Assembly (NCBI GenBank): GCA_041662965.1
Contig: JBAZRI010000003.1
Location: 65,331-129,330, forward strand
Source of the DNA: Patescibacteria group bacterium
GTDB taxonomy: Bacteria > Patescibacteriota > Patescibacteriia > Patescibacteriales > GWC2-42-12
Direction: 5' to 3'
Length of the DNA stretch: 64,000 bases
The stretch's first letter is position 1; each line of letters starts with the position of its first letter. Below the pieces are notes generated by a model. That model worked only from the letters and a program-made list of their open reading frames with translations. It was not told the origin of the DNA and did not search any database. Both the position numbers and the translations under genes were made by a program. Positions 4,045 through 64,000 of this stretch are shown here, in pieces.

Positions 4045-4069
4045 ACTTTAATGCAAAATTAAAATTTTC

Positions 4070-4168
4070 TGTCATTGCGAGAAGCACGTAATCGGGCGAC
4101 GAAGCAATCTCCGGTTAAAATCAGAGTACGTGAGATTGCTTCGCTTCCTTCAGTCGCTCGCAATGACA
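4070..4168. repeat. TGTCAT-headed GC-rich palindromic repeat, two inverted half-units forming a ~99-nt hairpin in the rpoB-rpoC spacer
   Basis: TGTCATTGCGAG...GCGACGAAGCAATCTC is mirrored by GAGATTGCTTCGC...CTCGCAATGACA. The same unit recurs at 12602, 16086, 45290 and 59845. Confidence 0.9.
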
Positions 4169-4212
4169 ATAAAAAATAATTTTATATTTTAAATGTCATT
4201 TTTAATTATTTG

Positions 4213-7200: not shown

Positions 7201-7674
7201 GCCGTAATATTTTTTGCCCTTAACGAATTCCGAAGTGAAAATAACGCCGGCGCTTCTGATCAACTGCGAAACCACGACTCTTTCAATGCCATTGACTATA
7301 AAAGTGCCGTTTTTAGTCATTAAAGGAAAATCGCCTAAAAACACCTCCTGAGTAACGGCTTGGCCGGTTTTTTTATTGGATAATTTAGCCTTGACTCTAA
7401 GCGAAGCTTCATAAGTGATATTTTTAGACTTACTCTCGCTTTCGTCAAATTTAGGCTCGTCCAAATAATAGTCTTCCAAAGACAATTCAAGGTCGCGGCC
7501 GATAAAATCGGTGATCGGAGAAACTTCTTCAAACAAATCTTTGAGTCCATCAGTCAAAAACCAATTATAAGAATCTTTTTGAATTTCAATTAAATCCGGC
7601 AAATCAATCGATGCCTTGGTATCGCTGAAAAATTTCCGGCCGGCTGATTTTATTTTCGTAGTCATAATATTCAA
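4213..7674 (-). CDS. rpoB: DNA-directed RNA polymerase subunit beta
   Basis: 1153-aa ORF with conserved beta-subunit blocks (GEMEVWALEAYGAA, NMQRQAVPL, GRHGNKGV). The true start may be a few codons inside. Confidence 0.97.
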   Translation of the reverse strand: MNIMTTKIKSAGRKFFSDTKASIDLPDLIEIQKDSYNWFLTDGLKDLFEEVSPITDFIGRDLELSLEDYYLDEPKFDESESKSKNITYEASLRVKAKLSNKKTGQAVTQEVFLGDFPLMTKNGTFIVNGIERVVVSQLIRSAGVIFTSEFVKGKKYYGAKVIPNRGAWLEIETDMNDVIWVRIDRKRKVAITSLFRAFGYGADEEIRQLFTEKNELTGGIDGQKSLSGYIEATLAKDAAKNEAEGLKEVYKRIRPGDLATTDNARQLIHSMFFRFDRYDFDRVGRYKMNKRFGQNIPNNKENRVLRREDLIAIVKEIVRLNITQEREDDIDHLGNRRVRAIGELIQNKFRVGLARMERIVRDRMSIMDIDSLTPNKLINARPVISVVKEFFMSSQLSQFMDQTNPLAELEHKRRLSAMGPGGLTRERAGFEVRDVHTTHYSRICPIATPEGPNIGLVGHLASYARLNSYGFIEAPYRVVLHDIANDPAKTLNKIAREDIYEIKGDKKGKLIIKAGEVIDKKTAAELKAKMGHVTIPIVPVLGDEIVYLDAFEEEKYITTPATTPVDANGYFKVLKAEARKYGQPSLEPVEKIDLIGVAPNQIVSVATSLIPFLEHNDGIRALMGTNMQRQAVPLITAEAPIVGTGMEARAATDSGHIILAPDDGEIVKMDGGSIEFKSKKGQTTKYILNKFLRSNASTCINQRPIVNHGDKVKKGDVLTNSSAVDDGELSLGRNVLVAFMSWEGFNYEDAVIISERLMKEDVYSSIHIENYTIDVRDTKLGPELITNDIPNISEEKLKDLDERGVVRIGAEVSSGDILVGKITPKGETELSAEEKLLRAIFGEKAKDVRDSSLYLEHGEHGKVVDIKLFSREDGDKLSAGVIQSIQVTVANLRKIQIGDKMAGRHGNKGVISKVVPIEDMPYLADGTPIEIILSPLGVVSRMNLGQLLETHLGYAAKKLNYKIAVPPLNGISEAQIKEELKKAGLPTNGKVTLYDGKTGEAYDNQVVIGYKYMLKLNHMVEDKMHQRSIGPYSLITQQPLGGKAQFGGQRFGEMEVWALEAYGAAHCLQEILTIKSDDVPGRSKAYEAIIKGEPIRKLNVPESFNVLVRELKGLCLDVELLQGDQVVNLERQGDDKPAEEGERRQNFGEREQR

Positions 7675-7682
7675 TTTATTTC

Positions 7683-7792
7683 ATCAAGTTAAAATTTAAT
7701 GGCCATAGAGCTTGGCTCGCTATTAAATTTTAACTTGATACATTATATTTTTTGAAAATATTAAAAACTTTTTTTGAAAAAGTTTTTAAAGG
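7683..7792 (-). promoter_or_regulatory. Hairpin plus TATAAT cassette (copy 1 of 3) immediately upstream of rpoB
   Basis: 18-bp AT stem (7683-7700 / 7722-7739) around the conserved loop GGCCATAGAGCTTGGCTCGCT. This is followed by a conserved 53-nt block that reads TATAAT on the minus strand and contains the AAAAACTTTTT/AAAAAGTTTTT palindrome. Copies at 10749 and 61051. Confidence 0.6.
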
Positions 7793-30796: not shown

Positions 30797-31273
30797 TTAA
30801 AAATTTTTGATGAGCGCGATTTCCTTGCAGTCTACTGACCCCGGTACGGCGATATTGCGCGGACAGCGGATACAATCTGTCCACATTTTTTTAGGCAGCA
30901 TCTCCATGCCAACTTTTTTAAAACCGTGCTTTTCAAAAGTATTAGGGCGTAAAGTTAAAGTGTAAACTATTTTTATGCCCAGATCCTCTATCCTCTCCAT
31001 CACTGCCGAAATTAGCATAGAGCCTATGCCGTGATTAAAATATTTTTTATCCACAACCCAAGAAACTATTTCCGCTTTTTCATCTTCACCGATTTTAAAA
31101 GCCACGCTGCCGGCAAATTGGCCATCATAGTCAGCCGCCAAAAAATTCGGCAACATGACCGTTAGCTCGGCTCTGCTTTTTGGCAGAAGCAACTCTTCCT
31201 TAGCATAGAGCTTGATTAAATCGTGAATTTTTACTATATCACTAACTACCGCTTGTCTAATTATTATTTTCAT
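30797..31273 (-). CDS. GNAT acetyltransferase of the short ArgA-like (COG1246, N-acetylglutamate synthase-like) type
   Basis: 158 aa. The N-terminal IRQAVVSDIVKIHDLIKLYAKEELLLPKS pattern, the GNAT core, and the C-terminal KMWTDCIRCP...C motif are typical of this subfamily. AGGAG RBS. Confidence 0.65.
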   Translation of the reverse strand: MKIIIRQAVVSDIVKIHDLIKLYAKEELLLPKSRAELTVMLPNFLAADYDGQFAGSVAFKIGEDEKAEIVSWVVDKKYFNHGIGSMLISAVMERIEDLGIKIVYTLTLRPNTFEKHGFKKVGMEMLPKKMWTDCIRCPRNIAVPGSVDCKEIALIKNF

Positions 31274-31513: not shown

Positions 31514-31789
31514 AAAAAACCTCGTCTTCAAATAGAAAAAATTCTATTCAAGGACGAGGTTATTTAGTCTCGTGGTACCACCCTGATTCCCCAATTTTAT
31601 TATCGGAGCGCTCATTAAGCTATTTGCCCGCGGTAGCAAACCGCTCCGGCCTACTTAGGTTCAGCCGGCAATCTCCGGAAGCGCGTTCAGCATTACTGGC
31701 CTGCCGGGCTCGCACCATTACCCGGCTCGCTTAGAGGCTTAAATATTGCTTACTATTTTCCTTCAATGATTAGGTTGATTTTTAAGATC
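31514..31789 (-). promoter_or_regulatory. T-box riboswitch leader (specifier most likely CGC, Arg) with a terminator/antiterminator
   Basis: T-box sequence AATCAGGGTGGTACCACGAG (31569-31588). Stem I AG-bulge AGCGA and distal loop GGTGCGA. AGTA S-turn and GAA-CGC-G specifier loop. Terminator CCTCGTCC...GACGAGG plus T6 (31514-31559). Confidence 0.8.
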
Positions 31790-34232: not shown

Positions 34233-34298
34233 ATACAATAGAAAAAAGACGAGATTAAAAAACTCGCCTTTTTTATTGTAATTTTAAATTTTTAAGGC

Positions 34299-34428
34299 GA
34301 GCCTAGAAAAATTTAGGATAAAATTTATGGCAAAATTTCTTTACAAAATTTTCCTGTTTGAGCCGTTAGGCGAGTTGAAAATTTTGTTAGAAATTATTGG
34401 CATAAATTCCTAAATTTTTCTCCAGCTC
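34299..34428. repeat. ~130-nt imperfect long hairpin with the core CTGTTTGAG-hairpin-CGAGTT
   Basis: ~50-bp imperfect inverted arms around 34354-34376. The left arm begins with the recurrent GCGAGCCTAGAAAAATTTAGG motif. Confidence 0.7.
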
Positions 34429-34483
34429 GCGATTTTTGCGCCGCTTTTTCTAAAAAAGCGGCCCCGAGCGGAGCGGAAACATA

Positions 34484-36495: not shown

Positions 36496-36508
36496 AGTTT
36501 TTATTAAT

Positions 36509-36613
36509 AATTCAGCTGCAAAAAATTGTTTTTATCGCGCATACGAAATTGTAGCGACCGCAGGGAGACCAAATTTCGTCTAAGCAGAAAAAACAATTTT
36601 TTGCAGCTGAATT
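36509..36613. repeat. Conserved-core / locus-specific-stem hairpin, family B' copy 1
   Basis: 25-bp outer stem AATTCAGCTGCAAAAAATTGTTTTT / its complement. Core GCGCATACGAAATTGTAGC...AAATTTCGTCTAAGC is shared with 42455-42601. Confidence 0.75.
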
Positions 36614-36622
36614 ATGCGTAAG

Positions 36623-37759: not shown

Positions 37760-37780
37760 AAAATATGTTCTCTATTAACT

Positions 37781-37880
37781 AATTGGGCTAAATTTGTAAA
37801 ATTTTCGTACGAGGACTGTTTGAGCCCGAGTACTCTCGGGCGAGTTCCGCAGTAGAAAATTTAATAAATTTAGCCCAATT
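37781..37880. repeat. Conserved-core / locus-specific-stem hairpin, family B copy 1
   Basis: Outer stem AATTGGGCTAAATTT.. and conserved arms TTTTCGTACGAGGACTGTTTGAG / CGAGTTCCGCAGTAGAAAAT around the central hairpin CCCGAG-TACT-CTCGGG. Confidence 0.8.
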
Positions 37881-37903
37881 ATCATGTATTTTAACTAAAA
37901 AAT

Positions 37904-42446: not shown

Positions 42447-42454
42447 TATAATAT

Positions 42455-42601
42455 TGTCCGGTTTGGGAAAATTATTTTATAGCGCATACAAAATTGTAGC
42501 TGATTTTTTTCAAAAAATAATCATCTAATATAATAAAATATTCTTTGAAAAAAATCACCAAAATTTTGTCTAAACGGGAAAATAATTTTCCCAAACCGGA
42601 C
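42455..42601. repeat. Conserved-core / locus-specific-stem hairpin, family B' copy 2
   Basis: 24-bp outer stem TGTCCGGTTTGGGAAAATTATTTT / its complement. Core arms GCGCATACAAAATTGTAGC and AAATTTTGTCTAAAC, with an AT-rich central insert. Confidence 0.7.
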
Positions 42602-42636
42602 ATTAAGCATGCTGATTTAAAAAACCAATTTTTATT

Positions 42637-43509
42637 TTACCAACTCCCGCTCGACCCGCCGCCGCCGGACGACCCGCCGCCGAAGCCGCCGAAACCGCCG
42701 CCGCCGAATCCACCTGATCCGCCGCGTCCGCCGCCGATCCACCAAGGTATATGGCCGCCGGCCTTGCCGGCCTGATATTTTTTAGAAACTACATAATCAA
42801 ATAACAAGCCGAACGGAATTAAAAAACCGATAGCGGCTATGCCGAAAAATAAAAAGCCTTTGATTATGCCGATTACTATCCCAATAACCGCGCCGACGAT
42901 GCCGCCGGCCCACCACGATTTGCTTCTGCCTAAGATGCTGGCCAGCCACATAAAACCGAAAATAACTATATAAAAAATAAATTCCGGATCAAACGACGAT
43001 TTTTTATCGCCGCTGTTTTGGCTGTCGCTTGGCACATATTCTCCTTTAGTCGCGGCCATTATCTGGTCAACTGCTTTATCCAGCCCGCCGTAAAAATCAT
43101 TAGCGCGAAAAGCCGGCTGCATCATCTGATTGATAATCCAATTGGATTGGGCGTCGGTTAAAGCGCCTTCTAAACCATAGCCGACTTCAATCCGCATTTC
43201 CCGGTCATCTTTGGCTACCAATACTAAAACACCGTTATCTTTTCCTTGCTTGCCGATCTGCCAATCTTCAAATAGTTTAACCGCGAAATTTTCAATCGTA
43301 TCGCCTTCAAGGCTGGCTATTAAAACCACGGCGATTTCATTGCTGGTTTCTTGATTAAACTGCGCTAATTTATTCTCCAGCGCTTGTTTTTGTTCAGAAG
43401 AAAAAGTTCCGGCATAATCATTAACAAAACCGCTGGGCTGCCCGGGATTATAGTAGGCAAAAACCGGCCAAGCAAAAAATAATAATAAAATTATGATTAT
43501 TTTTTTCAT
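42637..43509 (-). CDS. TPM-domain (YgcG-like) protein with a C-terminal TM region and a Gly-rich tail
   Basis: Signal peptide MKKIIIILLLFFAWPVFA, the TPM pattern, and a GGFGGGG tail. The longer ORF start at 43626 reads through a repeat and was rejected. Confidence 0.8.
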   Translation of the reverse strand: MKKIIIILLLFFAWPVFAYYNPGQPSGFVNDYAGTFSSEQKQALENKLAQFNQETSNEIAVVLIASLEGDTIENFAVKLFEDWQIGKQGKDNGVLVLVAKDDREMRIEVGYGLEGALTDAQSNWIINQMMQPAFRANDFYGGLDKAVDQIMAATKGEYVPSDSQNSGDKKSSFDPEFIFYIVIFGFMWLASILGRSKSWWAGGIVGAVIGIVIGIIKGFLFFGIAAIGFLIPFGLLFDYVVSKKYQAGKAGGHIPWWIGGGRGGSGGFGGGGFGGFGGGSSGGGGSSGSW

Positions 43510-43524
43510 AATTAGAAATCTCAA

Positions 43525-43624
43525 GATTGGGCAAGGCTTATTTAATTTTCGTGCGAGGACTGTCTGAGGCCGAGCAATCTCGACCGAGTTCCGCAGTAGA
43601 AAATTAAATAAGCCTTGCCCAATC
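43525..43624. repeat. Conserved-core / locus-specific-stem hairpin, family B copy 2
   Basis: Outer stem GATTGGGCAAGGCTTATTTAATTTTC / its complement. Same conserved arms as 37781. Central hairpin GGCCGAG-CAAT-CTCGACC. Confidence 0.8.
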
Positions 43625-43659
43625 ATTTATGCTATAACTTACATTTTGCTAAACTGTTA

Positions 43660-54597: not shown

Positions 54598-54692
54598 AAA
54601 AATTCCGCAAATAATAGTAAATTTTCGTGCGAGGACTGTTTGAGGACGCCATTAGGCGGACGAGTTCCGCAGTAGAAAATTTGCTGTTATTT
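54598..54692. repeat. Conserved-core / locus-specific-stem hairpin, family B copy 3
   Basis: Outer stem AAAATTCCGCAAATAA.. / its complement. Conserved arms TTTTCGTGCGAGGACTGTTTGAG and CGAGTTCCGCAGTAGAAAAT. Central CGCC-ATTA-GGCG. Confidence 0.8.
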
Positions 54693-54734
54693 GCGGAATT
54701 TTATCTGTTTAATAATTTAAGAAGCTAGGCTATT

Positions 54735-61386: not shown

Positions 61387-64000
<2,614 letters not shown>

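Follow-up and report, generated by a model that had tools for sequence, protein, structure and literature searches.

The window, the whole stretch of 64,000 nucleotides analysed here (contig JBAZRI010000003.1 of a Patescibacteria group bacterium), carries between two minus-strand genes a hairpin of about 100 nt at 37781-37880. What is this hairpin, and does it act as RNA or as DNA? The first-pass annotation had placed further copies at 43525-43624 and 54598-54692 and had left two readings, a structured RNA of the operon transcript and a small element that inserts into the loops of terminator hairpins. Our preferred reading is another one and is still tentative, with a probability of about 45%. 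The window hairpin would be one copy of a non-coding palindromic family of the MITE/REP type, ~100-125 nt long, whose core acts as a folded single strand, probably of DNA, for a trans-acting enzyme. The family is abundant in Falkowbacteria-like CPR genomes.

All three copies were recovered by the pattern and inverted-repeat scans. A fourth locus that had been thought related (34299-34428) proved to be a real short form, so the window holds four copies in 64 kb, three long-form and one short-form (Table 1). In all four, a long AT-rich stem encloses non-complementary arms that are conserved and an apical hairpin (P2) that varies. In each long copy, the inverted-repeat scan found outer stem arms of 26-28 nt with 48 nt between them. 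The 15-nt left arm CGAGGACTGTYTGAG has exactly three matches in the window, and so has the 20-nt right arm CGAGTTCCGCAGTAGAAAAT, which was found 0 times in 100 shuffles of the window. The arms had been called conserved, and they are conserved single-stranded sequence across the family. In the short form, a stem of ~55 bp surrounds CTGTTTGAG-CCGTTAGG-CGAGTT alone (34354-34376). Copies 1 and 2 have the stem ends ATTGGGC...GCCCAAT in common.

On the + strand every long copy forms one long hairpin, with folding energies between -48 and -57 kcal/mol and z-scores of roughly -9 to -10, and the hairpins of the window copies are very stable on both strands. As first described, all long copies are in + orientation with minus-strand ORFs on both sides. 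The products of these ORFs are unrelated: a permease and a translin-like protein at copy 1, TPM and LemA at copy 2, and two ORFs without Pfam match at copy 3.

Table 1. Positions of repeat copies and their parts in the window, of family B elements, of orthologous sites and of cargo units.
Feature	Position	Strand	Remarks
Copy 1, long form, stem subfamily 1	37780..37881	+	Pattern match, inverted-repeat scan, folding
Copy 1, outer stem arms	37780-37806 / 37855-37881		Complementarity 93%
Copy 1, left arm CGAGGACTGTTTGAG	37810-37824	+	
Copy 1, apical hairpin P2	37825-37840	+	
Copy 1, right arm CGAGTTCCGCAG	37841-37852	+	20-nt form CGAGTTCCGCAGTAGAAAAT spans 37841-37860
Copy 1, 3' tail TCATGTAT	37882..37889	+	Part of the weak subfamily-1 ATGT motif
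Copy 2, long form, stem subfamily 1	43525..43624	+	
Copy 2, outer stem arms	43525-43550 / 43599-43624		Complementarity 100%
Copy 2, left arm	43554-43568		
Copy 2, P2	43569-43584		
Copy 2, right arm	43585-43596		20-nt CGAGTTCCGCAGTAGAAAAT at 43585-43604
Copy 3, long form, stem subfamily 2	54599..54702	+	
Copy 3, outer stem arms	54599-54626 / 54675-54702		Complementarity 93%; two G:T pairs on + strand
Copy 3, left arm	54630-54644		
Copy 3, P2	54645-54660		
Copy 3, right arm	54661-54672		20-nt CGAGTTCCGCAGTAGAAAAT at 54661-54680
Short-form copy	34297..34430	+	Between convergent genes
Family B element	36507..36615	+	Long stem, TATCGCGCATAC, inner hairpin, GTCTAAGCAG; architecture like the core family, other arms
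Second family B element	42452..42605	+	ATAGCGCATAC ... GTCTAAACGGG within a 150-nt palindrome
Family B in relatives	L126 3545-3680 and 10560-10700; L127 1620-1760		
LemA-TPM spacer			Window: copy 2. L127: orthologous element, five left-arm differences, all compensated in the right arm. L126: different 125-nt palindrome. L128, L131-L133: 27- and 23-nt spacers without hairpin
Site upstream of MQQILDLHIH gene			Window: copy 3. L126, L127: family B. L128: 3-nt spacer
Translin-permease spacer			Window: copy 1. L126-L128: plain terminator and promoter-like sequence
Cargo unit	L079 1669-5533		McrB-like AAA_5 and McrC, within 385-nt inverted ends
Cargo unit	L001 9041-10267		DUF2971
Cargo unit	L069 1-1459		8xMP membrane protein
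Cargo units	L063, L052		ORFs without Pfam match
Unit	L050		IS4-type IS with its own different inverted ends, inserted centrally

These elements matter for annotation, as they create spurious ORFs and can lengthen real genes. The reading frame of the TPM-domain gene (window 42637-43626, minus strand; L125 937-1926) runs open through copy 2. The longest TPM ORF and the public gene call both have 329 aa, which is 39 codons too long; the start is probably at 43509, giving 290 aa. Two more long intergenic inverted repeats of the window, at 4050-4188 and 7673-7749, are in neither the core family nor family B, and the former encloses the GC-rich segment CATTGCGAG ... CTCGCAATG. A T-box leader was also seen on the minus strand (31547-31775, 115 bits). 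The next minus-strand ORF after it encodes a 158-aa GNAT acetyltransferase (30797-31273), not an aminoacyl-tRNA synthetase.

A metagenome scan for the CPR-type left arm gave at least 112 loci with about 100 distinct copies. The family is therefore far larger than three copies. The outer stems had been taken as unique to each locus, and a MITE had been excluded for want of conserved termini. Neither claim survives the larger sample. The ~100 related copies fall into two conserved stem subfamilies, each with its own conserved pair of termini (GATTGGGC...GCCCAATC and GCTCCGCGG...CCGCGGAGC). The stem of subfamily 1, to which copies 1 and 2 belong, is GATTGGGCTAAATTTGTAAAAT ... ATTTTATAAATTTAGCCCAATC, and that of subfamily 2, which includes copy 3, is GCTCCGCGGATAATGGCAAAT ... 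ATTTGCTGTTATCCGCGGAGC. Single copies depart from the subfamily consensus by compensated changes. P2 occurs in the CPR copies as a few discrete types, which combine freely with either stem subfamily.

For the covariation analysis, 92 copies were aligned, trimmed and fitted to the proposed structure. In this alignment 83.7% of the cells were paired, against 59.6% in shuffles, and 403 cells were changed on both sides, against 154. The covariation score was 0.529, compared with 0.14 for shuffles and at most 0.149 for slid partners. Both stems, the outer one and that of the central hairpin, covary strongly. A coding role was rejected because P2 lengths are not multiples of three and the translations have no Pfam match.

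Subfamily 1 has a weak ATGT motif (0.6-1.2 bits) on the + strand, 4-5 nt past the right end of the hairpin. The mirrored left flank of this subfamily has no ATGT-like motif, only AT-rich background. The weak 3' tail may belong to the mobile unit. When the flanks of 93 copies were listed, no direct repeat was evident by inspection, with the exact ends uncertain given the one-sided tail. The first-pass annotation had named conserved outer ends with target-site duplications as the sign of an ordinary MITE. The conserved ends are there, and a target-site duplication was not seen. As in classical MITEs, the copies are short, non-coding, multi-copy and variable in presence, with conserved terminal inverted repeats.

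Homologues of LemA with 88-91% identity served to gather syntenic relatives. What is gained or lost is the whole ~100-125 nt hairpin, outer stem included, because the relatives have hairpin-free spacers of 3-27 nt at two of the sites. A comparison of orthologous spacers had been proposed, in which a simple hairpin might occupy the same place; hairpin-free alleles were found at these two sites, and a plain terminator with a promoter-like sequence at the third. One and the same site holds two different repeat families in different genomes. Beside the translin-like gene, L126 has a gene for a 23S rRNA intervening-sequence protein (PF05635; 15726-16070), which is absent from the window.

The core of the family reads CGAGGA CTGTYTGAG - hairpin - CGAGTT CCGCAG, and its minimal form CTGTYTGAG - hairpin - CGAGTT; one minimal copy has the sequence GGGCGAGGACTGTCTGAGCGAAGCGAGTTCCGCAGCCC. 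One genome per species was scanned with the pattern CTGTYTGAG-N4-30-CGAGTTCCGCAG, which gave at least 120 loci. Among the loci listed, the core matches carry the labels of about 11 bacterial phyla: Pseudomonadota (with many Gallionella, Methylotenera, Dechloromonas and Sulfuricella), Nitrospirota, Bacillota, Bacteroidota, Spirochaetota, Actinomycetota, Patescibacteria, Gastranaerophilales, Omnitrophota, Myxococcota and Thermodesulfobacteriota. Nearly all matches listed have a common anatomy, namely a variable stem P1, CGAGGA, CTGTYTGAG, the variable hairpin P2, CGAGTTCCGCAG and P1'; a few are chance matches in coding sequence (L002, L038). CGAGGA was present in 110 of 125 copies though it lay outside the required pattern, in which 21 letters had to be exact. 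Three copies have the variant CGAGCA...GCGCAG, a compensated change from G-C to C-G, which supports a GGA/UCC mini-helix inside the loop.

Also widespread is the short form, in which P1 directly borders CTGTYTGAG-P2-CGAGTT; one host is Ralstonia pseudosolanacearum GMI1000, with a unit at 302.7-303.1 kb of its megaplasmid. Fuzzy searches of the collected loci added only 13 matches, mostly short-form or variant. No copy was found in 5,426 E. coli genomes. In the plasmid collection, copies were found in Ralstonia megaplasmids only, where they are unannotated. A phage-borne element was rejected, as the viral contigs held only 3 real copies. The termini vary by lineage, and the same core lies inside elements with unrelated termini. 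The core is a cross-phylum module within unrelated lineage-specific repeat families.

Rfam searches with five kinds of copy, at gathering and at permissive thresholds, gave nothing relevant. CPR, Ralstonia and betaproteobacterial copies hit weak microRNA or unrelated hairpin models, far below threshold. The motif had been recognised from no known RNA family, and this now holds for every form. A literature search by sequence and peptide strings and by keywords returned no description of the motif, and the keyword matches were general MITE, REP and HUH papers alone. The core is apparently undescribed before; a prior description under another name is possible. Translations of such repeats are found as spurious ORFs in proteobacterial genomes.

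Some proteobacterial loci combine modules. Where two were paired in one locus, the left one was on the minus and the right one on the plus strand in 10 of 10 cases. The pairs are the arms of palindromic units of ~0.4-0.5 kb (L029, L004, L124), in which P1 and P2 differ between the arms and are compensated within each. The units made by proteobacterial inverted pairs measure 0.4-3.9 kb and have long inverted ends. Some of these modules flank defence-type cargo genes (Table 1), and the units in L079, L001 and L069 look like cargo-carrying cassettes with inverted ends of 180-385 nt. The Ralstonia glgX-glgB spacer (L124 2150-2680, L246, L247) occurs in three strain states: a 440-nt unit, a 75-nt palindrome and a 24-nt hairpin. 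These states are consistent with stepwise deletion between internal repeats. The palindromes are nested, and that of Ralstonia continues well past either edge of the unit.

Conserved synteny of the Nitrospirales copies was rejected. Beside the core in L080 (1977-2318) and in neighbouring Nitrospirales loci, spurious ORFs encode peptide strings such as SLRYAQDRPFDKLRT, which we take to be the translated products of a different GC-rich repeat of wide distribution. Several shared modules may thus be joined in composite repeats. The inner loop of a family B element (36551-36570, GTAGCGACCGCAGGGAGACC) is similar to the GAGTAGCGCAGGGAAC junction found in the proteobacterial units.

Several features indicate which strand folds. 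G:T mismatches exceed A:C mismatches 65 to 21 in diverse copies, under a scoring that treats both alike, and 61 to 23 in the CPR stems with the consensus wobble column left out; the excess is 2-3 fold only and, as the copies are related, these are not independent counts. The two stem consensus sequences contain three imperfections, each of them G:T on the window + strand. The UGA/GAG flanks of P2, as read from the sequence, could form tandem sheared G-A pairs on the + strand only. Minimal copies fold better than their complements under RNA and under DNA parameters. From this we infer that the folding strand is probably the window + strand. That strand is C-rich throughout the window and antisense to most genes and to the rRNA operon, which lies on the minus strand; it would thus be the leading-strand template. 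The 23S rRNA gene (window 61387-64000) has long GC-rich palindromic insertions typical of CPR, especially at 62517-62632 and 63892-63998. One of them has CTTCGGCGAGGCGCAGCC, which is like the outer core arms with the inner part missing.

The apical hairpin P2 bears on whether DNA or RNA is the active form. Its length runs from 5 to 29 nt across copies, so nothing but folding, of a single strand or into a cruciform, brings the two arms together; this excludes a double-stranded binding site of fixed spacing. Triloops make up 66 of the 123 P2 loops, and 54 of these are GNA (GAA 28, GTA 15, GCA 11). In 24 copies the insert has only 5 nt (e.g. CGAAG) and forms GCGAAGC with the flanking G and C. The DNA d(GCGAAGC) is an exceptionally stable mini-hairpin, whereas its RNA equivalent is weak. 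The CPR copies have tetraloops, not GNA triloops. On balance DNA is somewhat favoured over RNA, roughly 60:40.

These results bear directly on the structured RNA of the operon transcript that had been proposed at first. Such an mRNA element would be an RNase III-type processing site or a stabiliser, with internal loops that bind protein. The strong covariation stands in its favour, as does the great stability of the hairpins from either strand. Its copies lie almost only in short co-directional spacers, and in the CPR loci the hairpin ends ~20 nt from the preceding stop and ~20 nt from the next start codon; these distances largely reflect the short spacers of these genomes. Effects of REP-type repeats on the stability of mRNA are documented (PMC3733652, PMC6006769). 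The orientation weakens the proposal. Both neighbours run opposite to the motif in 73 CPR copies and in the same direction in 9 (convergent 3, divergent 3), so the mRNA mostly carries the complement of the better-folding strand. On this complement the tandem G-A pairs become C/U mismatches and G:T becomes A:C. Moreover, the neighbour genes are unrelated, relatives lack the element at the same sites, the proteobacterial pairs have one module in each orientation, and a 2-bp P2 with a GNA loop would be weak as RNA. We therefore consider an mRNA element unlikely. An intrinsic terminator was rejected separately, as the terminator scan contained no copy and no T-run follows the stem on either strand, and consensus scans did not support a promoter role.

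The + strand might instead be active as RNA, either as a self-cleaving ribozyme or as an antisense RNA. Sense insertions in operons would then be purged, which would produce the orientation bias. This strand does fold better as RNA, the bias is strong, and invariant unpaired nucleotides stand between covarying helices across phyla, as in small ribozymes. The likeness to the hammerhead is only superficial. The hammerhead has a CUGAUGA ... GAAA core at a three-helix junction; the present core is CUGUYUGA ... GAGUU with two helices, and no match to the hammerhead was obtained at E-values up to 10. No ribozyme family scores, there is no conserved promoter upstream on the + strand, and GNA triloops outnumber GNRA or UNCG tetraloops. 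The nine sense copies inside gene arrays appear intact; they do not lie in islands of minority gene orientation. An active + strand RNA is thus quite doubtful. Kink-turn, sarcin-ricin loop, group II domain 5, LexA box and ECF-sigma promoter were also compared by eye on the alignment and rejected, as register or spacing fails across copies.

We return to the MITE/REP-type family, which we prefer. Its mobility is read from the filled and empty orthologous sites, the two subfamilies, the freely assorting P2 types, the unrelated neighbour genes and the proteobacterial inverted pairs with their cargo. In the proposed mechanism, the + strand would fold as single-stranded DNA and expose the small GNA-looped hairpin with its conserved unpaired flanks. 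A trans-acting, strand-specific enzyme would recognise the folded core and copy or move the element, by analogy with REPs and RAYT or with IS200/IS605 ends and the TnpA transposase. The element would function independently of the neighbouring genes. The window has 48 non-overlapping ORFs with 90 aa or more; neither the 30 of them that were scanned nor the DNA between paired modules yielded a transposase, HUH enzyme or reverse transcriptase, and the sole transposase met was the IS4 in L050. Besides this negative result, the modest G:T excess and the tetraloops of the CPR copies, three points count against this reading. The element always lies within transcribed spacers, the favoured strand is opposite to that used by IS608-type elements, and the core is identical across phyla, whereas REP and IS200/IS605 hairpins are species-specific (PMC6006769).

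The absence of a transposase in these two sets also fits a host DNA structural signal, that is, a cruciform or a site for topology or replication proteins, spread by recombination and not by a dedicated transposase. CGTC-type REPs are likewise without a dedicated transposase (PMC3733652). Independent assortment of P1 and P2 suggests recombination among copies, and the nested palindromes and deletion derivatives in Ralstonia point the same way. A host signal should occupy conserved sites, yet close relatives vary in presence and absence. E. coli has no copy in the genomes searched, and the cargo-bearing inverted pairs resemble mobile cassettes. We regard this as improbable.

It is very improbable that a small core inserts into the loops of pre-existing terminator hairpins, because, although the stems look locus-specific inside the window, the Ralstonia unit lies within a larger palindrome and other long window hairpins have no core, the empty alleles refute such insertion at two sites, the stems are two conserved subfamilies over unrelated loci, the core-less hairpins form a second family with arms of its own, and no T-runs follow the stems.

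The MITE/REP-type palindrome is itself an ordinary kind of element; the unusual point is a cross-phylum core in unrelated repeats. To our knowledge, bacterial palindromic repeats are regarded as lineage-specific, the only widely shared tags being the 4-nt GTAG and CGTC, and we know of no Y1 system that explains a core identical across phyla. Such a core implies a common trans-acting partner or an intrinsic activity. It is possible, if somewhat less likely than not, that the core is a new horizontally spread structured module, captured independently by unrelated repeats in many phyla. It could then be a third, much longer class of REP-like ssDNA tag served by some widespread enzyme, or else a small RNA of a new kind that is catalytic or binds protein. 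The motif gives a handle for finding the partner, and cultured hosts include Ralstonia pseudosolanacearum GMI1000 and Dechloromonas hankyongensis.

Finally, we compared the element with known systems. The attC site of integrons is an imperfect hairpin with RYYYAAC at its 5' and GTTRRRY at its 3' end; the ends are conserved, the centre varies, and the sites in cassette arrays lie in direct orientation. Subfamily 1 ends in GTTGGGC...GCCCAAC, which is the reverse order, and here the centre is conserved and not the ends, so attC was rejected. RNase III hairpins of the phage T7 type are also long, intercistronic and have an asymmetric internal loop. The present element differs in its sequence conservation across phyla, its mobile behaviour and a better-folding strand that is antisense to the mRNA.

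MITEs and mobile insertion cassettes (Correia, ERIC, MIC231) are likewise small, non-coding, palindromic, intergenic and variable in presence. Passenger genes between long inverted ends, as in mobile insertion cassettes, are seen in the proteobacterial forms. No target-site duplication was evident in the flanks listed, and no parent IS with the same ends was found among the 30 window ORFs scanned or between paired modules. Its most conserved part is the arm centre, not the terminus, and the core sits within elements of unrelated termini.

With IS200/IS605 ends and their non-autonomous derivatives (PATEs) the element shares a one-strand hairpin and a strong strand bias; no target duplication was seen, and a weak motif stands on one flank only. 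It has one nested hairpin, not distinct left and right ends, and no TnpA was found. IS608-type elements act on the lagging-strand template (PMC6006769), whereas the leading-strand template is apparently used here.

Closer still, ahead of REP/RAYT and IS200/IS605 ends, are the GTAG/CGTC-tagged REP superfamilies. These are small hairpins whose unpaired tags are conserved, and they are known from 8 phyla (Di Nocera et al. 2013, PMC3733652). The differences concern the tag and the body. P2 is flanked by CTGTYTGAG and CGAGTT and not by GTAG/CGTC at the foot of a 20-40 nt hairpin; GTAG was found in CPR copies only, next to the outer right arm. The unpaired part has 15 + 12 nt (9 + 6 in the short form), compared with a tetranucleotide, and it stands on both sides of the hairpin, buried in a further stem of 20-50 bp. 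REP bodies are species-specific and have a cognate single-copy RAYT gene with REPs on either side, whereas the present core is identical across phyla, and the scan of 30 window ORFs showed no RAYT or other Y1 gene. The likenesses to tagged REPs and REPINs are nevertheless extensive. Each is a palindrome present in many intergenic copies, mainly where the adjoining genes are co-directional or convergent. In both, conserved unpaired motifs border a small hairpin whose loop often has 2-3 nt. Both also fall into subfamilies in which stem changes are compensated and G:T pairs are frequent, occur frequently as inverted dimers and carry tags that span several phyla.
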